A stretch of DNA of 33,119 bases from Escherichia phage ET-SD-TH. The stretch is from the sequence record OR992646. One strand, given 5' to 3'. Position numbers and translations under genes: made by a program. Positions 7,674 through 31,223 of the stretch are shown in pieces; positions within the stretch are counted from its first letter, which is position 1, and every line of letters starts with the position of its first letter. The notes beneath the pieces were generated by a model. The model worked only from the letters and a program-made list of their open reading frames with translations. It ran no database searches and was not told where the DNA came from.

Positions 7674-10600
7674 AAAGGCGACAAATCAGTAACNNNNNNN
7701 NNNNNNNNNNNNNNNNNNNNNNNNNNNNNNNNNNNNNNNNNNNNNNNNNNNNNNNNNNNNNNNNNNNNNNNNNNNNNNNNNNNNNNNNNNNNNNNNNNNN
7801 NNNNNNNNNNNNNNNNNNNNNNNNNNNNNNNNNNNNNNNNNNNNNNNNNNNNNNNNNNNNNNNNNNNNNNNNNNNNNNNNNNNNNNNNNNNNNNNNNNNN
7901 NNNNNNNNNNNNNNNNNNNNNNNNNNNNNNNNNNNNNNNNNNNNNNNNNNNNNNNNNNNNNNNNNNNNNNNNNNNNNNNNNNNNNNNNNNNNNNNNNNNN
8001 NNNNNNNNNNNNNNNNNNNNNNNNNNNNNNNNNNNNNNNNNNNNNNNNNNNNNNNNNNNNNNNNNNNNNNNNNNNNNNNNNNNNNNNNNNNNNNNNNNNN
8101 NNNNNNNNNNNNNNNNNNNNNNNNNNNNNNNNNNNNNNNNNNNNNNNNNNNNNNNNNNNNNNNNNNNNNNNNNNNNNNNNNNNNNNNNNNNNNNNNNNNN
8201 NNNNNNNNNNNNNNNNNNNNNNNNNNNNNNNNNNNNNNNNNNNNNNNNNNNNNNNNNNNNNNNNNNNNNNNNNNNNNNNNNNNNNNNNNNNNNNNNNNNN
8301 NNNNNNNNNNNNNNNNNNNNNNNNNNNNNNNNNNNNNNNNNNNNNNNNNNNNNNNNNNNNNNNNNNNNNNNNNNNNNNNNNNNNNNNNNNNNNNNNNNNN
8401 NNNNNNNNNNNNNNNNNNNNNNNNNNNNNNNNNNNNNNNNNNNNNNNNNNNNNNNNNNNNNNNNNNNNNNNNNNNNNNNNNNNNNNNNNNNNNNNNNNNN
8501 NNNNNNNNNNNNNNNNNNNNNNNNNNNNNNNNNNNNNNNNNNNNNNNNNNNNNNNNNNNNNNNNNNNNNNNNNNNNNNNNNNNNNNNNNNNNNNNNNNNN
8601 NNNNNNNNNNNNNNNNNNNNNNNNNNNNNNNNNNNNNNNNNNNNNNNNNNNNNNNNNNNNNNNNNNNNNNNNNNNNNNNNNNNNNNNNNNNNNNNNNNNN
8701 NNNNNNNNNNNNNNNNNNNNNNNNNNNNNNNNNNNNNNNNNNNNNNNNNNNNNNNNNNNNNNNNNNNNNNNNNNNNNNNNNNNNNNNNNNNNNNNNNNNN
8801 NNNNNNNNNNNNNNNNNNNNNNNNNNNNNNNNNNNNNNNNNNNNNNNNNNNNNNNNNNNNNNNNNNNNNNNNNNNNNNNNNNNNNNNNNNNNNNNNNNNN
8901 NNNNNNNNNNNNNNNNNNNNNNNNNNNNNNNNNNNNNNNNNNNNNNNNNNNNNNNNNNNNNNNNNNNNNNNNNNNNNNNNNNNNNNNNNNNNNNNNNNNN
9001 NNNNNNNNNNNNNNNNNNNNNNNNNNNNNNNNNNNNNNNNNNNNNNNNNNNNNNNNNNNNNNNNNNNNNNNNNNNNNNNNNNNNNNNNNNNNNNNNNNNN
9101 NNNNNNNNNNNNNNNNNNNNNNNNNNNNNNNNNNNNNNNNNNNNNNNNNNNNNNNNNNNNNNNNNNNNNNNNNNNNNNNNNNNNNNNNNNNNNNNNNNNN
9201 NNNNNNNNNNNNNNNNNNNNNNNNNNNNNNNNNNNNNNNNNNNNNNNNNNNNNNNNNNNNNNNNNNNNNNNNNNNNNNNNNNNNNNNNNNNNNNNNNNNN
9301 NNNNNNNNNNNNNNNNNNNNNNNNNNNNNNNNNNNNNNNNNNNNNNNNNNNNNNNNNNNNNNNNNNNNNNNNNNNNNNNNNNNNNNNNNNNNNNNNNNNN
9401 NNNNNNNNNNNNNNNNNNNNNNNNNNNNNNNNNNNNNNNNNNNNNNNNNNNNNNNNNNNNNNNNNNNNNNNNNNNNNNNNNNNNNNNNNNNNNNNNNNNN
9501 NNNNNNNNNNNNNNNNNNNNNNNNNNNNNNNNNNNNNNNNNNNNNNNNNNNNNNNNNNNNNNNNNNNNNNNNNNNNNNNNNNNNNNNNNNNNNNNNNNNN
9601 NNNNNNNNNNNNNNNNNNNNNNNNNNNNNNNNNNNNNNNNNNNNNNNNNNNNNNNNNNNNNNNNNNNNNNNNNNNNNNNNNNNNNNNNNNNNNNNNNNNN
9701 NNNNNNNNNNNNNNNNNNNNNNNNNNNNNNNNNNNNNNNNNNNNNNNNNNNNNNNNNNNNNNNNNNNNNNNNNNNNNNNNNNNNNNNNNNNNNNNNNNNN
9801 NNNNNNNNNNNNNNNNNNNNNNNNNNNNNNNNNNNNNNNNNNNNNNNNNNNNNNNNNNNNNNNNNNNNNNNNNNNNNNNNNNNNNNNNNNNNNNNNNNNN
9901 NNNNNNNNNNNNNNNNNNNNNNNNNNNNNNNNNNNNNNNNNNNNNNNNNNNNNNNNNNNNNNNNNNNNNNNNNNNNNNNNNNNNNNNNNNNNNNNNNNNN
10001 NNNNNNNNNNNNNNNNNNNNNNNNNNNNNNNNNNNNNNNNNNNNNNNNNNNNNNNNNNNNNNNNNNNNNNNNNNNNNNNNNNNNNNNNNNNNNNNNNNNN
10101 NNNNNNNNNNNNNNNNNNNNNNNNNNNNNNNNNNNNNNNNNNNNNNNNNNNNNNNNNNNNNNNNNNNNNNNNNNNNNNNNNNNNNNNNNNNNNNNNNNNN
10201 NNNNNNNNNNNNNNNNNNNNNNNNNNNNNNNNNNNNNNNNNNNNNNNNNNNNNNNNNNNNNNNNNNNNNNNNNNNNNNNNNNNNNNNNNNNNNNNNNNNN
10301 NNNNNNNNNNNNNNNNNNNNNNNNNNNNNNNNNNNNNNNNNNNNNNNNNNNNNNNNNNNNNNNNNNNNNNNNNNNNNNNNNNNNNNNNNNNNNNNNNNNN
10401 NNNNNNNNNNNNNNNNNNNNNNNNNNNNNNNNNNNNNNNNNNNNNNNNNNNNNNNNNNNNNNNNNNNNNNNNNNNNNNNNNNNNNNNNNNNNNNNNNNNN
10501 NNNNNNNNNNNNNNNNNNNNNNNNNNNNNNNNNNNNNNNNNNNNNNNNNNNNNNNNNNNNNNNNNNNNNNNNNNNNNNNNNNNNNNNNNNNNNNNNNNNN

Positions 10601-12750
10601 NNNNNNNNNNNNNNNNNNNNNNNNNNNNNNNNNNNNNNNNNNNNNNNNNNNNNNNNNNNNNNNNNNNNNNNNNNNNNNNNNNNNNNNNNNNNNNNNNNNN
10701 NNNNNNNNNNNNNNNNNNNNNNNNNNNNNNNNNNNNNNNNNNNNNNNNNNNNNNNNNNNNNNNNNNNNNNNNNNNNNNNNNNNNNNNNNNNNNNNNNNNN
10801 NNNNNNNNNNNNNNNNNNNNNNNNNNNNNNNNNNNNNNNNNNNNNNNNNNNNNNNNNNNNNNNNNNNNNNNNNNNNNNNNNNNNNNNNNNNNNNNNNNNN
10901 NNNNNNNNNNNNNNNNNNNNNNNNNNNNNNNNNNNNNNNNNNNNNNNNNNNNNNNNNNNNNNNNNNNNNNNNNNNNNNNNNNNNNNNNNNNNNNNNNNNN
11001 NNNNNNNNNNNNNNNNNNNNNNNNNNNNNNNNNNNNNNNNNNNNNNNNNNNNNNNNNNNNNNNNNNNNNNNNNNNNNNNNNNNNNNNNNNNNNNNNNNNN
11101 NNNNNNNNNNNNNNNNNNNNNNNNNNNNNNNNNNNNNNNNNNNNNNNNNNNNNNNNNNNNNNNNNNNNNNNNNNNNNNNNNNNNNNNNNNNNNNNNNNNN
11201 NNNNNNNNNNNNNNNNNNNNNNNNNNNNNNNNNNNNNNNNNNNNNNNNNNNNNNNNNNNNNNNNNNNNNNNNNNNNNNNNNNNNNNNNNNNNNNNNNNNN
11301 NNNNNNNNNNNNNNNNNNNNNNNNNNNNNNNNNNNNNNNNNNNNNNNNNNNNNNNNNNNNNNNNNNNNNNNNNNNNNNNNNNNNNNNNNNNNNNNNNNNN
11401 NNNNNNNNNNNNNNNNNNNNNNNNNNNNNNNNNNNNNNNNNNNNNNNNNNNNNNNNNNNNNNNNNNNNNNNNNNNNNNNNNNNNNNNNNNNNNNNNNNNN
11501 NNNNNNNNNNNNNNNNNNNNNNNNNNNNNNNNNNNNNNNNNNNNNNNNNNNNNNNNNNNNNNNNNNNNNNNNNNNNNNNNNNNNNNNNNNNNNNNNNNNN
11601 NNNNNNNNNNNNNNNNNNNNNNNNNNNNNNNNNNNNNNNNNNNNNNNNNNNNNNNNNNNNNNNNNNNNNNNNNNNNNNNNNNNNNNNNNNNNNNNNNNNN
11701 NNNNNNNNNNNNNNNNNNNNNNNNNNNNNNNNNNNNNNNNNNNNNNNNNNNNNNNNNNNNNNNNNNNNNNNNNNNNNNNNNNNNNNNNNNNNNNNNNNNN
11801 NNNNNNNNNNNNNNNNNNNNNNNNNNNNNNNNNNNNNNNNNNNNNNNNNNNNNNNNNNNNNNNNNNNNNNNNNNNNNNNNNNNNNNNNNNNNNNNNNNNN
11901 NNNNNNNNNNNNNNNNNNNNNNNNNNNNNNNNNNNNNNNNNNNNNNNNNNNNNNNNNNNNNNNNNNNNNNNNNNNNNNNNNNNNNNNNNNNNNNNNNNNN
12001 NNNNNNNNNNNNNNNNNNNNNNNNNNNNNNNNNNNNNNNNNNNNNNNNNNNNNNNNNNNNNNNNNNNNNNNNNNNNNNNNNNNNNNNNNNNNNNNNNNNN
12101 NNNNNNNNNNNNNNNNNNNNNNNNNNNNNNNNNNNNNNNNNNNNNNNNNNNNNNNNNNNNNNNNNNNNNNNNNNNNNNNNNNNNNNNNNNNNNNNNNNNN
12201 NNNNNNNNNNNNNNNNNNNNNNNNNNNNNNNNNNNNNNNNNNNNNNNNNNNNNNNNNNNNNNNNNNNNNNNNNNNNNNNNNNNNNNNNNNNNNNNNNNNN
12301 NNNNNNNNNNNNNNNNNNNNNNNNNNNNNNNNNNNNNNNNNNNNNNNNNNNNNNNNNNNNNNNNNNNNNNNNNNNNNNNNNNNNNNNNNNNNNNNNNNNN
12401 NNNNNNNNNNNNNNNNNNNNNNNNNNNNNNNNNNNNNNNNNNNNNNNNNNNNNNNNNNNNNNNNNNNNNNNNNNNNNNNNNNNNNNNNNNNNNNNNNNNN
12501 NNNNNNNNNNNNNNNNNNNNNNNNNNNNNNNNNNNNNNNNNNNNNNNNNNNNNNNNNNNNNNNNNNNNNNNNNNNNNNNNNNNNNNNNNNNNNNNNNNNN
12601 NNNNNNNNNNNNNNNNNNNNNNNNNNNNNNNNNNNNNNNNNNNNNNNNNNNNNNNNNNNNNNNNNNNNNNNNNNNNNNNNNNNNNNNNNNNNNNNNNNNN
12701 NNNNNNNNNNNNNNNNNNNNNNNNNNNNNNNNNNNNNNNNNNNNNNNNNN

Positions 12751-12947: not shown

Positions 12948-15900
12948 NNNNNNNNNNNNNNNNNNNNNNNNNNNNNNNNNNNNNNNNNNNNNNNNNNNNN
13001 NNNNNNNNNNNNNNNNNNNNNNNNNNNNNNNNNNNNNNNNNNNNNNNNNNNNNNNNNNNNNNNNNNNNNNNNNNNNNNNNNNNNNNNNNNNNNNNNNNNN
13101 NNNNNNNNNNNNNNNNNNNNNNNNNNNNNNNNNNNNNNNNNNNNNNNNNNNNNNNNNNNNNNNNNNNNNNNNNNNNNNNNNNNNNNNNNNNNNNNNNNNN
13201 NNNNNNNNNNNNNNNNNNNNNNNNNNNNNNNNNNNNNNNNNNNNNNNNNNNNNNNNNNNNNNNNNNNNNNNNNNNNNNNNNNNNNNNNNNNNNNNNNNNN
13301 NNNNNNNNNNNNNNNNNNNNNNNNNNNNNNNNNNNNNNNNNNNNNNNNNNNNNNNNNNNNNNNNNNNNNNNNNNNNNNNNNNNNNNNNNNNNNNNNNNNN
13401 NNNNNNNNNNNNNNNNNNNNNNNNNNNNNNNNNNNNNNNNNNNNNNNNNNNNNNNNNNNNNNNNNNNNNNNNNNNNNNNNNNNNNNNNNNNNNNNNNNNN
13501 NNNNNNNNNNNNNNNNNNNNNNNNNNNNNNNNNNNNNNNNNNNNNNNNNNNNNNNNNNNNNNNNNNNNNNNNNNNNNNNNNNNNNNNNNNNNNNNNNNNN
13601 NNNNNNNNNNNNNNNNNNNNNNNNNNNNNNNNNNNNNNNNNNNNNNNNNNNNNNNNNNNNNNNNNNNNNNNNNNNNNNNNNNNNNNNNNNNNNNNNNNNN
13701 NNNNNNNNNNNNNNNNNNNNNNNNNNNNNNNNNNNNNNNNNNNNNNNNNNNNNNNNNNNNNNNNNNNNNNNNNNNNNNNNNNNNNNNNNNNNNNNNNNNN
13801 NNNNNNNNNNNNNNNNNNNNNNNNNNNNNNNNNNNNNNNNNNNNNNNNNNNNNNNNNNNNNNNNNNNNNNNNNNNNNNNNNNNNNNNNNNNNNNNNNNNN
13901 NNNNNNNNNNNNNNNNNNNNNNNNNNNNNNNNNNNNNNNNNNNNNNNNNNNNNNNNNNNNNNNNNNNNNNNNNNNNNNNNNNNNNNNNNNNNNNNNNNNN
14001 NNNNNNNNNNNNNNNNNNNNNNNNNNNNNNNNNNNNNNNNNNNNNNNNNNNNNNNNNNNNNNNNNNNNNNNNNNNNNNNNNNNNNNNNNNNNNNNNNNNN
14101 NNNNNNNNNNNNNNNNNNNNNNNNNNNNNNNNNNNNNNNNNNNNNNNNNNNNNNNNNNNNNNNNNNNNNNNNNNNNNNNNNNNNNNNNNNNNNNNNNNNN
14201 NNNNNNNNNNNNNNNNNNNNNNNNNNNNNNNNNNNNNNNNNNNNNNNNNNNNNNNNNNNNNNNNNNNNNNNNNNNNNNNNNNNNNNNNNNNNNNNNNNNN
14301 NNNNNNNNNNNNNNNNNNNNNNNNNNNNNNNNNNNNNNNNNNNNNNNNNNNNNNNNNNNNNNNNNNNNNNNNNNNNNNNNNNNNNNNNNNNNNNNNNNNN
14401 NNNNNNNNNNNNNNNNNNNNNNNNNNNNNNNNNNNNNNNNNNNNNNNNNNNNNNNNNNNNNNNNNNNNNNNNNNNNNNNNNNNNNNNNNNNNNNNNNNNN
14501 NNNNNNNNNNNNNNNNNNNNNNNNNNNNNNNNNNNNNNNNNNNNNNNNNNNNNNNNNNNNNNNNNNNNNNNNNNNNNNNNNNNNNNNNNNNNNNNNNNNN
14601 NNNNNNNNNNNNNNNNNNNNNNNNNNNNNNNNNNNNNNNNNNNNNNNNNNNNNNNNNNNNNNNNNNNNNNNNNNNNNNNNNNNNNNNNNNNNNNNNNNNN
14701 NNNNNNNNNNNNNNNNNNNNNNNNNNNNNNNNNNNNNNNNNNNNNNNNNNNNNNNNNNNNNNNNNNNNNNNNNNNNNNNNNNNNNNNNNNNNNNNNNNNN
14801 NNNNNNNNNNNNNNNNNNNNNNNNNNNNNNNNNNNNNNNNNNNNNNNNNNNNNNNNNNNNNNNNNNNNNNNNNNNNNNNNNNNNNNNNNNNNNNNNNNNN
14901 NNNNNNNNNNNNNNNNNNNNNNNNNNNNNNNNNNNNNNNNNNNNNNNNNNNNNNNNNNNNNNNNNNNNNNNNNNNNNNNNNNNNNNNNNNNNNNNNNNNN
15001 NNNNNNNNNNNNNNNNNNNNNNNNNNNNNNNNNNNNNNNNNNNNNNNNNNNNNNNNNNNNNNNNNNNNNNNNNNNNNNNNNNNNNNNNNNNNNNNNNNNN
15101 NNNNNNNNNNNNNNNNNNNNNNNNNNNNNNNNNNNNNNNNNNNNNNNNNNNNNNNNNNNNNNNNNNNNNNNNNNNNNNNNNNNNNNNNNNNNNNNNNNNN
15201 NNNNNNNNNNNNNNNNNNNNNNNNNNNNNNNNNNNNNNNNNNNNNNNNNNNNNNNNNNNNNNNNNNNNNNNNNNNNNNNNNNNNNNNNNNNNNNNNNNNN
15301 NNNNNNNNNNNNNNNNNNNNNNNNNNNNNNNNNNNNNNNNNNNNNNNNNNNNNNNNNNNNNNNNNNNNNNNNNNNNNNNNNNNNNNNNNNNNNNNNNNNN
15401 NNNNNNNNNNNNNNNNNNNNNNNNNNNNNNNNNNNNNNNNNNNNNNNNNNNNNNNNNNNNNNNNNNNNNNNNNNNNNNNNNNNNNNNNNNNNNNNNNNNN
15501 NNNNNNNNNNNNNNNNNNNNNNNNNNNNNNNNNNNNNNNNNNNNNNNNNNNNNNNNNNNNNNNNNNNNNNNNNNNNNNNNNNNNNNNNNNNNNNNNNNNN
15601 NNNNNNNNNNNNNNNNNNNNNNNNNNNNNNNNNNNNNNNNNNNNNNNNNNNNNNNNNNNNNNNNNNNNNNNNNNNNNNNNNNNNNNNNNNNNNNNNNNNN
15701 NNNNNNNNNNNNNNNNNNNNNNNNNNNNNNNNNNNNNNNNNNNNNNNNNNNNNNNNNNNNNNNNNNNNNNNNNNNNNNNNNNNNNNNNNNNNNNNNNNNN
15801 NNNNNNNNNNNNNNNNNNNNNNNNNNNNNNNNNNNNNNNNNNNNNNNNNNNNNNNNNNNNNNNNNNNNNNNNNNNNNNNNNNNNNNNNNNNNNNNNNNNN

Positions 15901-18793
15901 NNNNNNNNNNNNNNNNNNNNNNNNNNNNNNNNNNNNNNNNNNNNNNNNNNNNNNNNNNNNNNNNNNNNNNNNNNNNNNNNNNNNNNNNNNNNNNNNNNNN
16001 NNNNNNNNNNNNNNNNNNNNNNNNNNNNNNNNNNNNNNNNNNNNNNNNNNNNNNNNNNNNNNNNNNNNNNNNNNNNNNNNNNNNNNNNNNNNNNNNNNNN
16101 NNNNNNNNNNNNNNNNNNNNNNNNNNNNNNNNNNNNNNNNNNNNNNNNNNNNNNNNNNNNNNNNNNNNNNNNNNNNNNNNNNNNNNNNNNNNNNNNNNNN
16201 NNNNNNNNNNNNNNNNNNNNNNNNNNNNNNNNNNNNNNNNNNNNNNNNNNNNNNNNNNNNNNNNNNNNNNNNNNNNNNNNNNNNNNNNNNNNNNNNNNNN
16301 NNNNNNNNNNNNNNNNNNNNNNNNNNNNNNNNNNNNNNNNNNNNNNNNNNNNNNNNNNNNNNNNNNNNNNNNNNNNNNNNNNNNNNNNNNNNNNNNNNNN
16401 NNNNNNNNNNNNNNNNNNNNNNNNNNNNNNNNNNNNNNNNNNNNNNNNNNNNNNNNNNNNNNNNNNNNNNNNNNNNNNNNNNNNNNNNNNNNNNNNNNNN
16501 NNNNNNNNNNNNNNNNNNNNNNNNNNNNNNNNNNNNNNNNNNNNNNNNNNNNNNNNNNNNNNNNNNNNNNNNNNNNNNNNNNNNNNNNNNNNNNNNNNNN
16601 NNNNNNNNNNNNNNNNNNNNNNNNNNNNNNNNNNNNNNNNNNNNNNNNNNNNNNNNNNNNNNNNNNNNNNNNNNNNNNNNNNNNNNNNNNNNNNNNNNNN
16701 NNNNNNNNNNNNNNNNNNNNNNNNNNNNNNNNNNNNNNNNNNNNNNNNNNNNNNNNNNNNNNNNNNNNNNNNNNNNNNNNNNNNNNNNNNNNNNNNNNNN
16801 NNNNNNNNNNNNNNNNNNNNNNNNNNNNNNNNNNNNNNNNNNNNNNNNNNNNNNNNNNNNNNNNNNNNNNNNNNNNNNNNNNNNNNNNNNNNNNNNNNNN
16901 NNNNNNNNNNNNNNNNNNNNNNNNNNNNNNNNNNNNNNNNNNNNNNNNNNNNNNNNNNNNNNNNNNNNNNNNNNNNNNNNNNNNNNNNNNNNNNNNNNNN
17001 NNNNNNNNNNNNNNNNNNNNNNNNNNNNNNNNNNNNNNNNNNNNNNNNNNNNNNNNNNNNNNNNNNNNNNNNNNNNNNNNNNNNNNNNNNNNNNNNNNNN
17101 NNNNNNNNNNNNNNNNNNNNNNNNNNNNNNNNNNNNNNNNNNNNNNNNNNNNNNNNNNNNNNNNNNNNNNNNNNNNNNNNNNNNNNNNNNNNNNNNNNNN
17201 NNNNNNNNNNNNNNNNNNNNNNNNNNNNNNNNNNNNNNNNNNNNNNNNNNNNNNNNNNNNNNNNNNNNNNNNNNNNNNNNNNNNNNNNNNNNNNNNNNNN
17301 NNNNNNNNNNNNNNNNNNNNNNNNNNNNNNNNNNNNNNNNNNNNNNNNNNNNNNNNNNNNNNNNNNNNNNNNNNNNNNNNNNNNNNNNNNNNNNNNNNNN
17401 NNNNNNNNNNNNNNNNNNNNNNNNNNNNNNNNNNNNNNNNNNNNNNNNNNNNNNNNNNNNNNNNNNNNNNNNNNNNNNNNNNNNNNNNNNNNNNNNNNNN
17501 NNNNNNNNNNNNNNNNNNNNNNNNNNNNNNNNNNNNNNNNNNNNNNNNNNNNNNNNNNNNNNNNNNNNNNNNNNNNNNNNNNNNNNNNNNNNNNNNNNNN
17601 NNNNNNNNNNNNNNNNNNNNNNNNNNNNNNNNNNNNNNNNNNNNNNNNNNNNNNNNNNNNNNNNNNNNNNNNNNNNNNNNNNNNNNNNNNNNNNNNNNNN
17701 NNNNNNNNNNNNNNNNNNNNNNNNNNNNNNNNNNNNNNNNNNNNNNNNNNNNNNNNNNNNNNNNNNNNNNNNNNNNNNNNNNNNNNNNNNNNNNNNNNNN
17801 NNNNNNNNNNNNNNNNNNNNNNNNNNNNNNNNNNNNNNNNNNNNNNNNNNNNNNNNNNNNNNNNNNNNNNNNNNNNNNNNNNNNNNNNNNNNNNNNNNNN
17901 NNNNNNNNNNNNNNNNNNNNNNNNNNNNNNNNNNNNNNNNNNNNNNNNNNNNNNNNNNNNNNNNNNNNNNNNNNNNNNNNNNNNNNNNNNNNNNNNNNNN
18001 NNNNNNNNNNNNNNNNNNNNNNNNNNNNNNNNNNNNNNNNNNNNNNNNNNNNNNNNNNNNNNNNNNNNNNNNNNNNNNNNNNNNNNNNNNNNNNNNNNNN
18101 NNNNNNNNNNNNNNNNNNNNNNNNNNNNNNNNNNNNNNNNNNNNNNNNNNNNNNNNNNNNNNNNNNNNNNNNNNNNNNNNNNNNNNNNNNNNNNNNNNNN
18201 NNNNNNNNNNNNNNNNNNNNNNNNNNNNNNNNNNNNNNNNNNNNNNNNNNNNNNNNNNNNNNNNNNNNNNNNNNNNNNNNNNNNNNNNNNNNNNNNNNNN
18301 NNNNNNNNNNNNNNNNNNNNNNNNNNNNNNNNNNNNNNNNNNNNNNNNNNNNNNNNNNNNNNNNNNNNNNNNNNNNNNNNNNNNNNNNNNNNNNNNNNNN
18401 NNNNNNNNNNNNNNNNNNNNNNNNNNNNNNNNNNNNNNNNNNNNNNNNNNNNNNNNNNNNNNNNNNNNNNNNNNNNNNNNNNNNNNNNNNNNNNNNNNNN
18501 NNNNNNNNNNNNNNNNNNNNNNNNNNNNNNNNNNNNNNNNNNNNNNNNNNNNNNNNNNNNNNNNNNNNNNNNNNNNNNNNNNNNNNNNNNNNNNNNNNNN
18601 NNNNNNNNNNNNNNNNNNNNNNNNNNNNNNNNNNNNNNNNNNNNNNNNNNNNNNNNNNNNNNNNNNNNNNNNNNNNNNNNNNNNNNNNNNNNNNNNNNNN
18701 NNNNNNNNNNNNNNNNNNNNNNNNNNNNNNNNNNNNNNNNNNNNNNNNNNNNNNNNNNNNNNNNNNNNNNNNNNNNNNNNNNNNNNNNNNNNN

Positions 18794-23404: not shown

Positions 23405-24064
23405 TTAATGTCGCCTTATCTAATGCTAAAATCAATTTTGATTATCCACGCACAACGCGAATNNNNNNNNNNNNNNNNNNNNNNNNNNNNNNNNNNNNNN
23501 NNNNNNNNNNNNNNNNNNNNNNNNNNNNNNNNNNNNNNNNNNNNNNNNNNNNNNNNNNNNNNNNNNNNNNNNNNNNNNNNNNNNNNNNNNNNNNNNNNNN
23601 NNNNNNNNNNNNNNNNNNNNNNNNNNNNNNNNNNNNNNNNNNNNNNNNNNNNNNNNNNNNNNNNNNNNNNNNNNNNNNNNNNNNNNNNNNNNNNNNNNNN
23701 NNNNNNNNNNNNNNNNNNNNNNNNNNNNNNNNNNNNNNNNNNNNNNNNNNNNNNNNNNNNNNNNNNNNNNNNNNNNNNNNNNNNNNNNNNNNNNNNNNNN
23801 NNNNNNNNNNNNNNNNNNNNNNNNNNNNNNNNNNNNNNNNNNNNNNNNNNNNNNNNNNNNNNNNNNNNNNNNNNNNNNNNNNNNNNNNNNNNNNNNNNNN
23901 NNNNNNNNNNNNNNNNNNNNNNNNNNNNNNNNNNNNNNNNNNNNNNNNNNNNNNNNNNNNNNNNNNNNNNNNNNNNNNNNNNNNNNNNNNNNNNNNNNNN
24001 NNNNNNNNNNNNNNNNNNNNNNNNNNNNNNNNNNNNNNNNNNNNNNNNNNNNNNNNNNNNNNNN

Positions 24065-25154: not shown

Positions 25155-25589
25155 TTATTGCCCCGTAGTCATTAGTAGTCGGTGCTGATGGTTGTCATTT
25201 GCAGGTGATGTGTCTTTGTGGGGTTTGTCAGTGCAATGGCGCTTTACTGTGCGTTCTGATATGTCCAGCAGTTCCGCAATGGCTTTTGCGTCCATTCCTT
25301 CGCTGTGCATCCGCTTAATGCTGCGGTGAATGAAATGGCGGTAAATGTATTCACAATTAGCCGGGTGAAGCATTTCACCACCGAAGTGCTGCACCATCTT
25401 GCTGGCATCGTGCCACCCCAGGATTTTCACCAGTGGGTCATTGGGTCTAATCCGCTTTGGTACATACAGGATGACTTTGTGGTACTGCTGCGATGGCACC
25501 CACAGTTTTGGCAGTTGACCTATAAGAAAAAGCGCACGTTCACGGCCAATAACGTCAGCTATTTCCTGCACAGTGCGCGGTAATTCCAT
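25155..25589 (-). CDS. Mor-family late transcriptional activator
   Basis: ATG 25589-25587 preceded by GGGGGG; C-terminal GGEMLHPANCEYIYRHFIHRSIKRMHSEGMDAKAIAELLDISERTVKRHC matches the spacing of the Mu Mor GG...HTH region; positioned immediately upstream of the lysis/packaging genes. Confidence 0.55.
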   Translation of the reverse strand: MELPRTVQEIADVIGRERALFLIGQLPKLWVPSQQYHKVILYVPKRIRPNDPLVKILGWHDASKMVQHFGGEMLHPANCEYIYRHFIHRSIKRMHSEGMDAKAIAELLDISERTVKRHCTDKPHKDTSPANDNHQHRLLMTTGQ

Positions 25590-25660
25590 GTAACCCCCCA
25601 ATAATTATAAATAAAAGTCAATATGGGGATTGTAGCACACAGAATATACGAAAGTAACAA

Positions 25661-25928
25661 GGGACTAGCTTGGGACTATCTCGGGAAAAGATAGTCCCAC
25701 TATTATATTATTGATTAACTTGAAGAAAACGCCATTTTCTTGCTAGTTTGGGACAAGTGGGACCAAATTTCCCTATATATACTATTACTCCCCCTATATT
25801 TATAAATAATGTTTTATAAAAAGATAGTCCCTTATAGTCCCAAATGGTGTTTTCGTTATTAATATCAGTAACTTAAAGTGGGACCAGCTCAAAAAAAGAT
25901 AGTCCCATTTGGGACCATAGATAGTCCC
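25661..25928. repeat. array of 11 GGGAC-core repeats (consensus GATAGTCCCA / TGGGACTATC) in AT-rich DNA; candidate replication origin iterons or operator array
   Basis: GGGAC at 25661, 25672, 25750, 25759, 25880, 25911; GTCCC at 25694, 25827, 25837, 25902, 25924; several form inverted pairs; AT-rich tract with CCCTATAT twice (25771-25800) lies in the middle. Confidence 0.6.
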
Positions 25929-25988
25929 AAATCGCATTTGTATGACAATTACTTACCAGAAAAAGTGGTTAATATTGCTAAATCGACC

Positions 25989-26013
25989 AAAAAAAAACCG
26001 CCCGAAGGCGGTT
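25989..26013 (-). terminator. intrinsic terminator ending the leftward early/replication transcription unit
   Basis: Minus-strand RNA AACCGCC-UUCG-GGCGGUU followed by nine U (plus-strand A run 25989-25997, stem-loop 25996-26013), 6 nt after the stop at 26019-26021. Confidence 0.7.
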
Positions 26014-26018
26014 AGTTT

Positions 26019-26273
26019 TCAATCGCGGTTTGGTCCGGTTGGGATGTCGGTAAATCCTCTGCGCTTCCACAGGTGATACAGTCGCCATGCGATGCGTGCG
26101 CGTGGCATTGTTTTGAAGGTTCCCAGTTTGCGTTGATGTTTGCCATCAACGCACGTCACCTGCCAACCCCACGCCAGCCGCTGACAGCCAGGGACGCGCG
26201 CCATGTGCAGGTTGCGGTTGCTGATTGCTGTGACTGCCGGTTTTGGTTTTGCCACCACTGGTGCTGGTTTTTG
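26019..26273 (-). CDS. C-terminal part of a hypothetical protein with AP2-like DNA-binding motif (5' part masked)
   Basis: Frame is open from the N run to TGA at 26021-26019; Pro/Ala/Lys-rich linker then WQVTCVDGKHQRKLGTFKTMPRARIAWRLY resembling the AP2 pattern; terminator follows the stop. Confidence 0.35.
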   Translation of the reverse strand, partial: QKPAPVVAKPKPAVTAISNRNLHMARVPGCQRLAWGWQVTCVDGKHQRKLGTFKTMPRARIAWRLYHLWKRRGFTDIPTGPNRD

Positions 26274-27017
26274 NNNNNNNNNNNNNNNNNNNNNNNNNNN
26301 NNNNNNNNNNNNNNNNNNNNNNNNNNNNNNNNNNNNNNNNNNNNNNNNNNNNNNNNNNNNNNNNNNNNNNNNNNNNNNNNNNNNNNNNNNNNNNNNNNNN
26401 NNNNNNNNNNNNNNNNNNNNNNNNNNNNNNNNNNNNNNNNNNNNNNNNNNNNNNNNNNNNNNNNNNNNNNNNNNNNNNNNNNNNNNNNNNNNNNNNNNNN
26501 NNNNNNNNNNNNNNNNNNNNNNNNNNNNNNNNNNNNNNNNNNNNNNNNNNNNNNNNNNNNNNNNNNNNNNNNNNNNNNNNNNNNNNNNNNNNNNNNNNNN
26601 NNNNNNNNNNNNNNNNNNNNNNNNNNNNNNNNNNNNNNNNNNNNNNNNNNNNNNNNNNNNNNNNNNNNNNNNNNNNNNNNNNNNNNNNNNNNNNNNNNNN
26701 NNNNNNNNNNNNNNNNNNNNNNNNNNNNNNNNNNNNNNNNNNNNNNNNNNNNNNNNNNNNNNNNNNNNNNNNNNNNNNNNNNNNNNNNNNNNNNNNNNNN
26801 NNNNNNNNNNNNNNNNNNNNNNNNNNNNNNNNNNNNNNNNNNNNNNNNNNNNNNNNNNNNNNNNNNNNNNNNNNNNNNNNNNNNNNNNNNNNNNNNNNNN
26901 NNNNNNNNNNNNNNNNNNNNNNNNNNNNNNNNNNNNNNNNNNNNNNNNNNNNNNNNNNNNNNNNNNNNNNNNNNNNNNNNNNNNNNNNNNNNNNNNNNNN
27001 NNNNNNNNNNNNNNNNN

Positions 27018-27232: not shown

Positions 27233-27949
27233 NNNNNNNNNNNNNNNNNNNNNNNNNNNNNNNNNNNNNNNNNNNNNNNNNNNNNNNNNNNNNNNNNNNN
27301 NNNNNNNNNNNNNNNNNNNNNNNNNNNNNNNNNNNNNNNNNNNNNNNNNNNNNNNNNNNNNNNNNNNNNNNNNNNNNNNNNNNNNNNNNNNNNNNNNNNN
27401 NNNNNNNNNNNNNNNNNNNNNNNNNNNNNNNNNNNNNNNNNNNNNNNNNNNNNNNNNNNNNNNNNNNNNNNNNNNNNNNNNNNNNNNNNNNNNNNNNNNN
27501 NNNNNNNNNNNNNNNNNNNNNNNNNNNNNNNNNNNNNNNNNNNNNNNNNNNNNNNNNNNNNNNNNNNNNNNNNNNNNNNNNNNNNNNNNNNNNNNNNNNN
27601 NNNNNNNNNNNNNNNNNNNNNNNNNNNNNNNNNNNNNNNNNNNNNNNNNNNNNNNNNNNNNNNNNNNNNNNNNNNNNNNNNNNNNNNNNNNNNNNNNNNN
27701 NNNNNNNNNNNNNNNNNNNNNNNNNNNNNNNNNNNNNNNNNNNNNNNNNNNNNNNNNNNNNNNNNNNNNNNNNNNNNNNNNNNNNNNNNNNNNNNNNNNN
27801 NNNNNNNNNNNNNNNNNNNNNNNNNNNNNNNNNNNNNNNNNNNNNNNNNNNNNNNNNNNNNNNNNNNNNNNNNNNNNNNNNNNNNNNNNNNNNNNNNNNN
27901 NNNNNNNNNNNNNNNNNNNNNNNNNNNNNNNNNNNNNNNNNNNNNNNNN

Positions 27950-27981: not shown

Positions 27982-30072
27982 TCAAAATGGCCGGTCATCA
28001 TCGTCATGGAATCGCCGGTGGTCAGGGTTTGGCACCTTCGGCGGAATACTGAACAGGCGATTGCTGCCAGACTTCCTGGCAGGCTTGCCAGTGAGTTTTC
28101 TCAGTACCCCTGCACAATGTGTCGTCTGTGCCTTGTTCGGCTTGTCGTAGCCAATTTCTTGCAGCACCTGCGTTGCTGTACGGTCGGTATAGGCTGCCGG
28201 TCTGTCGCAACCCCACTCGTAACGCATCAGTATCATTTCCTCTACCGGGTCAATTGCTTCGTGTTCCTTGTTCACCTGTTCCAGCATGGCTTCTTCTTCT
28301 GCGTTCATCCACCAGCGCTCGCCTTCGCGGTACAACTGCGCCACTTCTGCCCAAACCTGCTGCATATCAATATCGTGTTCGTAGTTGATGCGTGTCACTG
28401 GAATAGTCCACCAGCGAACGTTCCCTGTATCATCCGCAAGGAAGTGTTTCGGGTTCACTGACGCAAAAAACACGGTTCTGCGCTGGTAGGTCGATTCAAG
28501 CCGGTCATAAGGTCTGCGGATTTCGTCACGGTCCTGGCTGATGAATGATTTCAGGCGTGCGATGTCCGATTTACGGAAAGTTGCATCCAGTTCACCAAGC
28601 TCCACCATCCAGCGTCCTATTGCGCTGCTGACGCTATCTTTGTTTGCCGGGTCGATTGTTGCCCCTACCTTAATCAGTTCACGCAGTGTAGGCGGCACCA
28701 GCGAGCGAAACCATGCTGTTTTCCCCAGCGACTGTTCGCCCTGTAGCACCAGAACGCCTTTTGAGTAGAACCCGGTTGGCTGCATCGCGGCAGCAACGGC
28801 GGAAATCAACCAGCGGCGAACCATCATCAACACCAGGCTTCGATCAAAACCTTCCGCCGTTTCCAGTGTATCGCACAGGTCATAAATGCGGCTCACACCA
28901 TCCCACGGTTTTGCGGTGATAAATTCAGATGCCGGATTGTAACGGTTGCTCATGGCAATCAGTTTTACATACTCAGCACAGGAACCAGACGGCATACCGT
29001 TGCGGGCGCACAGGCTGACAATTTCAGTCAATGCGCTGTTCGCTGATGCGTCGTTGCCGTAATCCTTGCCGGGGATCGTAACTACCACATCTTTGCTGAT
29101 TTCGTTGTAACGCGATTTTATGCCGTACTGGGTAAGCAGCCATTCCAGGTTTTCCCACGTGTTAAGCGGTTTTTGCTGGTGGCTCATGTGCGGGAACATG
29201 AACGGGTTTACGCTGGCATCTAGCGGCAGAAAGTTATCATTCACCGGTTCCGGAATCACCGCGTTAATCTGGTTGCATACAGCTTTTAAACCTTCCAGTA
29301 CGTGCAGGTCATTAAAGTCGGTCGGCTTATCGCTAAGGCGCATAAATTTAGGAACCGCCAGCAGGCCACCAGTGGTGATTGATGCCTGGCGAGCGTAGTG
29401 AACGCCATCATTTTGCTTGCCATCTTCGTGCCACTGGTCGTTATCGGCTGCCACAACAATTGTTGCGCGTCCGAACTGCTGACGCATTAGCTTGGCTACG
29501 GTCGGAACGTTGCCAGCATCGAACGCGACCACCACGCAGTAACCGGTAGCCTGGTGGATTGACGCGCCGGTGGAATACCCTTCACAGATAACAATAACCG
29601 GGTTTGCGCCAGTTGGTTTATTGCCAATGACGTGGAAGCACCCACGTTTCTGGCCCCCAGGAAGGTAATCACGGTCACGCCCTAGCTGTGGGTTTTCGTT
29701 CTGGAATATGGCTTGCAGGCTGGTGATCTGCCCGTCAATGTTTCTGATTGGCACCAGCAGCGCGCCATCCTGGTTACGAAAACGACCAATGCGCAGCCCG
29801 AATGATTTAACCAGTTTGCGTTTCAGATATGGGTGTTCATCGCCTTCCAGTTCGGTGGCTGATTCCCATATGGTGTTCGCCTGCGCAGCAGCCTGCGCCA
29901 TACGTTCTGCGCGCAGTTGTTGTTCTTTGCGCTCTTCTTCTTCGCGGCGTTTTTTACGCGCCTGAATCTCTTCGGCAGAAATCGGTGTGCGTTCGTTATC
30001 GTTCAGCGAAAAGCCAAATAACTGCGCCTCACCAATCAGGGTGCCAATCCCAATGCCTCCGTGACGCTTCAC
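27982..30072 (-). CDS. P4-type DNA primase/helicase (Toprim plus D5/P4-like NTPase), as the ORF reinitiating at GTG 30072
   Basis: 696-aa ORF; Toprim-like VIVICEGYSTGASIHQATGYCVVVAFDAGNV and DND motif; Walker A GEQSLGKT in the C-terminal half. The upstream in-frame 120 nt encode the start of a PriCT-2-like domain but are cut off by TAA at 30165-30163. Confidence 0.8.
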   Translation of the reverse strand: MKRHGGIGIGTLIGEAQLFGFSLNDNERTPISAEEIQARKKRREEEERKEQQLRAERMAQAAAQANTIWESATELEGDEHPYLKRKLVKSFGLRIGRFRNQDGALLVPIRNIDGQITSLQAIFQNENPQLGRDRDYLPGGQKRGCFHVIGNKPTGANPVIVICEGYSTGASIHQATGYCVVVAFDAGNVPTVAKLMRQQFGRATIVVAADNDQWHEDGKQNDGVHYARQASITTGGLLAVPKFMRLSDKPTDFNDLHVLEGLKAVCNQINAVIPEPVNDNFLPLDASVNPFMFPHMSHQQKPLNTWENLEWLLTQYGIKSRYNEISKDVVVTIPGKDYGNDASANSALTEIVSLCARNGMPSGSCAEYVKLIAMSNRYNPASEFITAKPWDGVSRIYDLCDTLETAEGFDRSLVLMMVRRWLISAVAAAMQPTGFYSKGVLVLQGEQSLGKTAWFRSLVPPTLRELIKVGATIDPANKDSVSSAIGRWMVELGELDATFRKSDIARLKSFISQDRDEIRRPYDRLESTYQRRTVFFASVNPKHFLADDTGNVRWWTIPVTRINYEHDIDMQQVWAEVAQLYREGERWWMNAEEEAMLEQVNKEHEAIDPVEEMILMRYEWGCDRPAAYTDRTATQVLQEIGYDKPNKAQTTHCAGVLRKLTGKPARKSGSNRLFSIPPKVPNPDHRRFHDDDDRPF

Positions 30073-30165
30073 TGATTTCCAGGTGTCGCGTGCGTCTTTG
30101 CTGTTGTAATTGTCAGACAGGCGTGACCAGTGGTTCCAGACGGTGAAACCGCCGTCGCCTATTTA

Positions 30166-30285
30166 CGATTTGACCGCCATCGCCATGCGCACCCATGTTT
30201 CACGGTCGCAACCGGCGTCGATGTAGGAAAGTGCTTCTGCAATTTCCTGTTCGGTCAAATCCTTATAGTTTTGTTGTGCACTCAT
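30166..30285 (-). other. 5' segment of the primase reading frame (ATG 30285-30283), separated from the main ORF by an in-frame TAA
   Basis: Translation MSAQQNYKDLTEQEIAEALSYIDAGCDRETWVRMAMAVKS then TAA; the same frame continues IGDGGFTVWNHWSRLSDNYNSKDARDTWKSVKRHGGIGIGTLIGEAQLFGF, together resembling one PriCT-2 domain. Confidence 0.55.
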
Positions 30286-30297
30286 AGAACCCCGATT

Positions 30298-30528
30298 TTA
30301 TGGCCTGTTAGCGCGCCATATGGACAGTGCGCGTTGTTCTAGTTCTTCGCGGGCTGTTGCGCCGCGCTGTTTTTCTATCGCTGCCAGCAGGGTGCGCCGT
30401 GCTTCAATGGTTGGCTGATTCAGAACGTATTTGGCTTCGCATTCCAGCAACCATTCCCGGCTATCGCTCAACACTTCGCGCCCATCGTGCAGCGTCACTG
30501 TGGTGGGCTGCCAGGTACAGGCGTTCAC
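30298..30528 (-). CDS. hypothetical protein (76 aa)
   Basis: ORF with ATGA overlap to the upstream methyltransferase-like gene and ending 13 nt before the primase ATG; no recognisable motif. Confidence 0.45.
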   Translation of the reverse strand: MNACTWQPTTVTLHDGREVLSDSREWLLECEAKYVLNQPTIEARRTLLAAIEKQRGATAREELEQRALSIWRANRP

Positions 30529-31223
30529 GCGACCGCCTCACCGCTTGACGGTTCATTGTCGTTAGCGTGGCGCAGGTGAGGCGCGTTGGCGTTGAAAACA
30601 GCAATGGCGAAGCCCAATGGCGTTGCGCTGCGGATGTTTGCACGCTCTGGACCAGGTGGGCATTTATGGATTCTGTCATCTGGTGCGCCCAATGTTTCAT
30701 CGCGGAACGCTTCCGGCATCACGAATCCGCCACCAGTCCAAAGGCATGTTTTCTTCGTGTAGTTGTCGTTCGCACAGTAGCCAGTGTAATCAACAGGGTT
30801 GAAAGCGTGGTCAGGTTTGCGCCAAAGGCTGCTAATCTGGCTAACAGGGTTTTCAACTGCCCACGGCGTGCCAGCCATTTCACCAATGATCTGACACTGC
30901 CAGACAACGTGCATTGCTTTGAACTGAAAGGCCGGGTCAGCTTCGCGTTTTGTGTTGAACCAACGCGCGCCACTCACACCCAAATCAGTGCAAGGCGGGA
31001 ATCCCATAACGAAAACAACGCGGCCAGTAGCCACTGTGCGGCGAAGAATATCCCATGTTGCTGGATGGTCGATGATATGGCCAACGCGGGTGATTGCGCC
31101 ATCAACGTGAACGCCTTCCGGGTGTTGAGGGTCAACAAGAACTGCTTCGTAACCTGCGTCAACCCACGGCTTTGACATTGTGCCAGTGATGTCACACAGG
31201 CAGATGATAATTCCTTTACTCAT
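30525..31223 (-). CDS. putative short C5-cytosine DNA methyltransferase-like protein (orphan)
   Basis: 232-aa ORF with, in canonical order, a beta1-loop-acidic start (IIICLCDITGT...VLVD), a PC motif GFPPCTDLGVSG (motif IV-like) and ENV (WAVENPVS, motif VI-like). Motif I is non-canonical and the target-recognition region is short, so the assignment is tentative. No restriction endonuclease partner is visible. Confidence 0.5.
   Translation of the reverse strand: MSKGIIICLCDITGTMSKPWVDAGYEAVLVDPQHPEGVHVDGAITRVGHIIDHPATWDILRRTVATGRVVFVMGFPPCTDLGVSGARWFNTKREADPAFQFKAMHVVWQCQIIGEMAGTPWAVENPVSQISSLWRKPDHAFNPVDYTGYCANDNYTKKTCLWTGGGFVMPEAFRDETLGAPDDRIHKCPPGPERANIRSATPLGFAIAVFNANAPHLRHANDNEPSSGEAVA

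Follow-up and report, generated by a model that had tools for sequence, protein, structure and literature searches.

A repeat array upstream of the late-activator gene of Escherichia phage ET-SD-TH as the probable replication origin of a self-loading primase-helicase

A gap between the replication genes and the late genes of Escherichia phage ET-SD-TH (sequence record OR992646; the 33,119 nucleotides analysed are referred to here as the window) is crowded with short repeats of the core GGGAC, which raises the question of what this array does and which protein reads it. The window DNA is 96% identical to that of Escherichia phage vB_EcoM_ECO1230-10, a myophage of the genus Jilinvirus, subfamily Iiscvirinae, and represents almost the entire phage genome. 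About 13 kb of the 33-kb window are N-masked and window-wide counts cover its 20,062 unmasked bases; the complete 41.7-kb genome of ECO1230-10 was used to check these counts. The array is most probably the replication origin of the phage, of the kind served by self-loading helicase-initiators in the pathogenicity islands of Staphylococcus aureus (SaPIs) and in P4. This reading is preferred because the repeat unit is exchanged among relatives under a constant layout, because the exchange is matched only in the wing of a predicted winged-helix domain of the phage primase-helicase, because the array surrounds the least stable DNA of the genome, and because the helicase is homologous to SaPI Rep1.

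The preliminary description of this DNA had placed eleven GGGAC cores in both orientations, recurring 10-mers with an inverted pair and an AT-rich tract (25771-25822) between the terminator of the early operon and a Mor-like gene, and all of this was borne out. Eleven copies of GGGAC or GTCCC lie in 25661-25928, against 0.17 expected from the composition of those 268 bp, and their orientations are, in order, + + - + + - - + - + -. Outside the array the word is scarce, with 3 copies in the other 19.8 kb of unmasked sequence where 49 are expected for independent, identically distributed bases and 8.7 under a third-order Markov model. Motif-specific avoidance of GGGAC elsewhere in the genome was considered as an explanation and rejected, since the Markov model attributes most of this rarity to rare GGG and GGGA words. 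The ECO1230-10 genome carries 24 copies of GGGAC in 41.7 kb, 11 within the array and 13 outside it (22 expected outside). There the array is the sole cluster: it holds 11 of the 14 GGGAC[TCA]A sites, and all other matches are singletons. The repeat unit is an 8-bp sequence, TGGGACnA, the consensus of 125 sites from 12 loci. The 10-mer TGGGACTATC is found at 25671-25680 and the 10-mer GATAGTCCCA at 25690-25699, 25898-25907 and 25920-25929.

The iterons lie on either side of an AT-rich tract at 25771-25823, the proposed DNA-unwinding element, with five sites to its left and six to its right. On the late-gene side, a proximal outer cluster (25661-25699) comprises sites at 25661(+), 25672(+) and 25694(-), the last two of which make the inverted pair TGGGACTATC-N9-GATAGTCCCA. 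It is followed by an inner pair at 25750-25763 with both units (25750 and 25759) on the plus strand and directed at the tract. On the terminator side, a second inner pair at 25827-25841 has both units (25827 and 25837) on the minus strand, likewise directed at the tract, and beyond it a distal outer cluster (25880-25929) contains four TGGGACnA units at 25880(+), 25902(-), 25911(+) and 25924(-). The two tandem inner pairs are thus convergent across the AT tract. This tract contains the least stable 50 bp both of the window and of the whole ECO1230-10 genome, with a nearest-neighbour free energy of about -50 kcal/mol against a mean of -74 (standard deviation 5) for 50-bp windows.

Two IHF-like sites accompany these repeats. 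The distal one, TATCAGTAACTTA (25863-25875, plus strand), lies between the outer cluster and the inner pair and differs by one mismatch from WATCAANNNNTTR; ECO1230-10 has TATCAATAACTTA at this position, which matches the consensus perfectly. The proximal one, AATCAATAATATA (25704-25716, minus strand), also has one mismatch and occupies the mirror position, and its AATCAA is kept in all seven enterobacterial relatives despite changes of the flanking iteron type. Near-matches with one mismatch number 15 in the whole window, 2 of them within the array, and IHF may act at these two sites, to judge by their sequence and placement. DnaA boxes (TTWTNCACA) are absent from 25590-26020 even when one mismatch is allowed.

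Comparison with relatives indicates that the array is maintained by selection. Across the window, ECO1230-10 and two further enterobacterial loci of the same iteron type (L007 and L008), none of 55 core positions varies whereas 83 of 248 non-core positions do (Fisher's exact test, p = 5e-9), and from this pattern the array is under selection. In a sister phage, ECOO78, the same gap is bounded by an identical terminator and by 46 identical bp beside the late-activator gene, but it contains 13 copies of GGTGAC and not a single GGGAC. This exchange is general: ECOO78, ep3, Arya, PT1, KA2-1, HeidiAbel and Alux-21 share the gap, the terminator and the promoter-proximal 46 bp, and carry 8-13 GGTGAC in place of GGGAC, the unit of these sister phages being mostly GGTGACnA. 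Single-unit sequences representative of the two iteron types are TGGGACTA and GGTGACTA. A search of IMG/VR with the late activator gave 62 loci, about 30 of which have an array in the same place. These arrays share one plan (outer cluster, convergent pair, AT-rich centre, convergent pair, outer cluster) and are built from TGGGAC, GGTGAC, GGTTAC, GGTAAC, AGTGAC, GGGTAC or other units; irrespective of the motif, nearly all related loci have convergent tandem pairs on both sides of the AT tract. A lone perfect GGGACTATC in ECO1230-10 (L002 38132-38140), at the start of the early leftward operon and beside the divergent early promoter gap, was also considered as a functional site; it is probably there by chance, since ECOO78, ep3 and Arya have no GGTGAC at the equivalent place.

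A constant layout with a changing unit implies that the array is read by a conserved protein family with changing specificity. The protein that fits this description is the primase-helicase, as the unit type tracks three wing-tip residues of its C-terminal domain in 25 of 25 loci, which are related to each other and do not amount to 25 independent trials. An SGS-type wing occurs in 13 loci (12 SGS, one TGS), all with 4-13 GGGAC and 0-1 GGTGAC, and a TKxG-type wing in 12 loci (10 TKxG, one SKNG, one KKVG), all with 6-13 GGTGAC and 0-1 GGGAC. The wing motif reads (R/K)K-SGSxR(L/V)F in GGGAC phages and (K/R)(K/R)-TK(N/A)GRFF in GGTGAC phages. In three loci (L013, L015 and L025) the wing was typed before the array was counted, and the counts agreed. 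When every protein conserved across the loci was compared for alignment columns that separate the GGGAC from the GGTGAC type, fully separating columns were found in the primase-helicase only, at amino acids 740-742 (17 loci carrying the C-terminal half), with two more in its N-terminal half (seen in 11 loci). A comparison between the enterobacterial clades puts 24 of 51 type-discriminating columns of the primase-helicase in its last ~70 residues.

The co-variation goes beyond shared ancestry because phages of opposite iteron type can have closely similar helicase cores. The core of L007 and L008, which are of the GGGAC type, is 96% identical to that of ECOO78, which is of the GGTGAC type, whereas their winged-helix region is 94% identical to that of the window. 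Core identity across types likewise reaches 93% between L027 (GGGAC) and L017 (GGTGAC) and 87% between L029 and L023, and in a phylogeny of the helicase core the iteron types are interleaved. This distribution implies, from sequence comparison, that iterons and wing have been exchanged together at least three times independently. Phages with GGTTAC or GGTAAC iterons (L012, L021, L028 and Serratia phage MQ-4) have a different and longer C-terminal region in their primase-helicase. A second segment, amino acids 151-180 (about 29746-29835, minus strand) just before the Toprim domain, also co-segregates with the iteron type within the enterobacterial clade, reading RIGRF----RNQDG in one type and RVGRFWTEKRSIDG in the other; in L007 this segment goes with the window (92% identity), whereas the helicase core goes with ECOO78. 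Its possible contacts are with DNA or with the C-terminal domain. The pattern suggests that the primase domain could also read the iteron, a two-point recognition that has not been described for SaPI Rep or P4 alpha.

Other proteins were considered as the specificity partner of the array and rejected. The late activator has the same recognition helix, SERTVKRH, in GGGAC and GGTGAC phages, and type-separating columns were found neither in this Mor-like protein (11 versus 8 loci) nor in the helix-turn-helix (HTH) protein gp44, a "repressor" (9 versus 6 loci), nor in gp42, terS or terL. Between the types the ParB-like protein keeps 96-97% identity, with a single conservative R-to-K change in its HTH. 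The product of gp38, two genes upstream of the array, has only 35% identity when ECO1230-10 is compared with ECOO78, but this mosaic accessory protein (PHROG 60, DUF551-like) lacks conservation across the other GGGAC-type phages.

The primase-helicase gene (27982-30285, minus strand), whose product is the proposed initiator, encodes a PriCT-2 domain, a Toprim primase, a VapE-like helicase (PF05272, E = 2e-51) and a C-terminal winged helix. Its helicase part matches the protein of PDB entry 7pds in a phmmer search (E = 9e-18), which is the complex of SaPI1 Rep1 with DNA, deposited under the title "The structure of PriRep1 with dsDNA". The preliminary description had called this protein a P4-type primase/helicase, and this holds for part of it. 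The Toprim part is homologous to P4 alpha (30% identity over 254 amino acids, E = 3e-16 by BLASTP; Toprim_3 in both), but the helicase is VapE-like and not D5/Pox_D5-like: a Pfam search found no match to Zn_Ribbon_Prim, D5_N or Pox_D5 and only a DUF5906 match below the cut-off (E = 8e-4), and PriCT_2 and the VapE-like domain stand in place of the D5_N/Pox_D5 domains of P4 alpha. The last 120 residues were modelled with AlphaFold2 from a 34-sequence alignment, with a mean predicted local distance difference test score (pLDDT) of 79 and values above 90 in the core. The predicted fold is a winged helix with one helix at residues 57-64, its recognition helix spanning 71-85 and a wing in the form of a beta-hairpin at 90-100 (model numbering), and the discriminating residues G93, S94 and N95 are predicted to form the wing tip. 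The core of this putative iteron-binding domain is encoded at 28045-28188 (minus strand), and the wing-tip residues G-S-N at 28060-28068. Two of the arrays found in IMG/VR (L038 6230-6580 and L066 2637-2939) are not accompanied by a primase-helicase homologue in the upstream DNA examined (7 kb in L038; in L066 ~3.4 kb, which reaches the end of the contig). The open reading frame (ORF) directly upstream of these two arrays encodes 100-116 amino acids and has a C-terminus that resembles a recognition helix and wing (e.g., ...RRNVGRWLREAGIEPRKVGGEQLFQL); it may be a stand-alone origin-binding protein.

With the unit/wing co-variation, the stability profile of the AT tract and the Rep1 homology, the earlier proposal of an iteron-type origin served by the nearby primase/helicase gains support. 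A mechanism can be outlined in which the winged-helix domains of the primase-helicase would occupy the eleven 8-bp iterons, and the convergent inner pairs (25750/25759 and 25827/25837) would assemble two helicase hexamers head to head on the AT tract. This tract of ~50 bp, the most easily melted DNA of the genome, would then open and allow the helicases to load themselves, and the fused Toprim primase would prime both strands, so that initiation would be bidirectional. The outer clusters (25661-25699 and 25880-25929) would raise the local occupancy or concentration of the initiator, possibly aided by bends induced by IHF.

The kind of origin proposed here is known from other elements. SaPI Reps are self-loading helicases that also act as initiators, through a C-terminal winged helix by which the iterons are recognised (PMC9371898). 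SaPI origins contain 6-12 penta- or hexanucleotide iterons and a roughly central AT-rich region, with two or more iterons to either side of it that point in opposite directions (PMC9371898). The present system shares with them a homologous VapE-like helicase followed by a winged helix (here a modelled one), short iterons with a core of 5-6 nucleotides in a number (11) that falls within this range, the AT-rich centre with at least two opposed iterons per side, and an iteron that is matched to the C-terminal domain of the helicase and exchanged with it as a pair among relatives, which in the present case is seen as co-variation only. It differs from SaPIs in being part of a complete myophage of a Gram-negative host and not of a satellite, in the primase part, which is a P4-alpha-like Toprim with an N-terminal PriCT-2, and in the position of the origin, which is not placed directly after the gene, as it is after rep in SaPIs, but ~2 kb downstream with four small ORFs and a terminator intervening. 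Moreover, the array abuts the late-activator promoter and contains IHF-like sites.

The likeness to P4 lies in the union of a Toprim primase, a helicase and a C-terminal origin-binding domain (a proposed one in the present case) in one polypeptide, and in octamer iterons that occur in both orientations at a spacing of ~9-11 bp. The general plan is also comparable, as the crr iteron block of P4 follows the alpha terminator and its ori immediately precedes the late sid-delta-psu operon. However, the Pfam families of the helicase and C-terminal domains differ, P4 alpha having a D5_N/DUF5906 helicase and a Pox_D5 origin-binding domain, whereas here a VapE-like helicase is joined to an unassigned winged helix. 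The Zn-ribbon of P4 alpha is absent, the iterons differ in sequence from those of P4, and the ECO1230-10 genome has a single array where P4 requires two loci, ori and crr. These sequence features place the system most aptly among the SaPI-type self-loading helicase origins, and its primase module is P4-like.

In lambdoid phages, initiator and iterons are swapped together as a specificity module, and the array resembles that of lambda in this exchange among relatives and in the position of the iterons beside an AT-rich region. Lambda O is nonetheless not a helicase and recruits host DnaB via P, and the four 19-bp iterons of ori-lambda are located within the O gene. Iteron plasmids such as pSC101, R6K and P1 (oriR) similarly place initiator-binding repeats beside an AT-rich unwinding element, often with IHF in an architectural role, but theirs are direct repeats of 17-22 bp in one orientation, associated with DnaA boxes, whereas the present units are 8 bp long, occur in both orientations and have no DnaA box, and the proposed initiator is the helicase-primase itself. 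The literature search, whose coverage is incomplete, found no description of an origin in Jilinvirus or other Iiscvirinae phages. While the kind of origin is thus a known one, what is new is its probable occurrence in the Iiscvirinae, where it would be the first defined replication module.

Several observations weigh against the assignment as an origin. GC and AT skew show no inflection at the array; their extremes coincide with the points of divergent and convergent transcription, and the skew follows gene orientation. A Foldseek search with the model of the C-terminal domain gave matches that are not individually significant (E > 0.05). The distance from the stop of the primase-helicase gene (27982) to the array, ~2 kb with four small ORFs and the terminator in between, is another such point. 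The association between wing and iteron, given the relatedness of the loci, comes down to about three or more independent swaps. In the window, moreover, codon 41 of the primase-helicase gene is an in-frame TAA (30163-30165, minus strand) instead of the GAA of ECO1230-10 (tcgTAAata versus tcgGAActa), which truncates the PriCT-2 domain; the next possible start is a GTG at 30072 and would give a 696-residue protein. This TAA could be a real nonsense codon, a suppressible mutant or a sequencing error. Finally, the genome also encodes gp51, gp52 and gp53, which include exonuclease VIII-like, other helicase-like and recombination proteins, and a fixed origin could be partly dispensable if replication depends on recombination.

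The most serious competing explanation arises from the surroundings of the array, where all genes are on the minus strand. Transcription passes from the primase-helicase gene through four small ORFs, which are partly masked, to the terminator, the array and the late-activator gene, and from there to the genes for holins, endolysin, Rz, a Nu1-like small terminase, the large terminase and the head and tail proteins. The early (replication) operon ends in a rho-independent terminator (25986-26013, minus strand), whose stem at 26013-25996 has 7 pairs (5 G-C) and leads into a T run. This terminator marks off the origin region on its distal side and is identical in ECO1230-10 and ECOO78 although their arrays differ. 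The late transcriptional activator on the other side ("Mor-like", 144 amino acids with a C-terminal HTH; 25155-25589, minus strand) is encoded by the first gene of the lysis and structural operon; it matches PHROG 836 ("late transcriptional activator", E = 7e-30) as well as Pfam HTH families, and it is annotated as late transcriptional activator in NC_027995. A putative extended -10 element of its promoter, TGcTACAAT (25629-25637, minus strand), was recognised by eye, and all seven enterobacterial relatives keep, upstream of the late-activator ATG, gCTACAAT and the next 45 bp. A consensus scan upstream of the late activator did not find a full sigma-70 promoter. The nearest proximal iteron lies 15-26 nucleotides upstream of the conserved TACAAT (~26 for the unit in the window), over the -35 region, which puts the proximal iterons at about -30 to -45 of the likely promoter. 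In the leader of the late-activator mRNA (25591-25626, minus strand), CCCCA can pair with the TGGGGG of the ribosome-binding site, but the RNA fold of this leader is no better than that of shuffled sequences (z = -1.4).

From this arrangement, the array could be mainly a transcriptional operator or enhancer of the late-activator promoter, to which the C-terminal domain of the primase-helicase or another regulator would bind in order to time the late genes, while replication would start elsewhere or by recombination. The position of the array directly upstream of the late-activator gene in every relative, the overlap of the proximal iterons with the -35 region, the missing sigma-70 consensus, which suggests a regulated promoter, and a GC skew that carries no origin signal are all in line with such a role. 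Nevertheless, it is unlikely to be the main function of the array. The HTHs of the late activator and of gp44 remain unchanged across the repeat types, with no type-specific column, and a replication enzyme is the sole protein that co-varies with the unit. An array of eleven sites across 270 bp, with convergent pairs around the least stable DNA, moreover has the architecture of an origin and would make an atypical operator. The suggestion in the preliminary description that the array might instead be an operator for the late activator was thus not upheld as far as the primary function is concerned.

A regulatory side effect can, on the other hand, coexist with an origin. Since the strong terminator insulates the late activator from the early operon, the activator should be expressible only from its own promoter, and with the proximal iterons over the -35 region of that promoter the initiator could affect late-activator expression. 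Binding of the initiator to these proximal iterons, or the firing of the origin, may in this way influence the promoter, which is a speculative proposal drawn from their positions. In its stronger form, the proposal has the origin double as an early-to-late switch, in which occupancy or unwinding by the primase-helicase would gate late transcription and couple the lysis and virion genes to the start of replication. We hold this to be a tentative idea that is doubtful at present.

It is far less probable that the array serves partition (as a parS-like site) or packaging (as a cos/pac site), with the ParB-like protein gp05 or the Nu1-like small terminase binding to it. Centromeres and some pac sites are indeed short repeat arrays in both orientations, the phage encodes both a ParB-like HTH protein and a Nu1-type small terminase, and some relatives keep lysogeny genes (PMC11990801). 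However, neither protein follows the iteron type: the near-identity of the ParB-like protein across types has been given above, and the small terminase is 98% identical across them with no type-specific column. The IMG/VR search for close relatives of the ParB-like protein led to other phage groups, ECOO78 being the only overlap with the array-bearing contigs. In addition, the array is 2 kb away from terS, with the lysis genes in between. Least probable of all are structural hairpins formed in RNA or DNA, such as additional terminators or a small RNA, and a low-complexity tract that arose by chance. Although two inverted pairs score as terminator-like (25671-25699, plus strand, and 25918-25899, minus strand), most units lie outside hairpin-forming pairs, and an Rfam scan of the gap gave nothing at E < 0.3. 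The core is kept while the spacers drift and whole-unit swaps preserve position and orientation, as fits recognition by a protein and not RNA structure, and the excess of cores over expectation excludes chance.

As to the remainder of the window, the masked sequence consists of six stretches (755-845, 7694-12750, 12948-18793, 23463-24064, 26274-27017 and 27233-27949) and affects tail and head genes, Rz and the small ORFs between the primase-helicase gene and the array (equivalents of gp37-gp40). ORFs called through N, such as one of "4260 aa", are artefacts. Copies of the phage in prophages or plasmids were sought by megablast in 5,426 complete E. coli genomes and in PLSDB, with zero hits. A protein of 232 amino acids encoded at 30525-31223 (minus strand) is a DNA methyltransferase according to the annotation of ECO1230-10 and matches no Pfam family. 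The window, ECO1230-10 and KA2-1 have it, L012 and L019 have homologues, and ECOO78 and ep3 lack it and have a different methyltransferase after their primase gene; its presence is independent of the iteron type.

Jilinvirus and the other Iiscvirinae are small myophages that figure in therapy-oriented work and whose biology has been termed "enigmatic" in the literature. Locating the origin and its initiator would provide a defined replication module for engineering and for studies of host range or defence. The natural series of exchanged units (TGGGACnA, GGTGACnA, GGTTAC, GGTAAC and AGTGAC) represents a data set on how self-loading helicase-initiators read DNA, from which a specificity switch is predicted: replacement of the wing SGS by TKxG should move the preference from T1/G3 of the 8-mer to G1/T3. 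Finally, an origin that adjoins the promoter of the late activator raises the testable possibility of a link between replication and late transcription in these phages.

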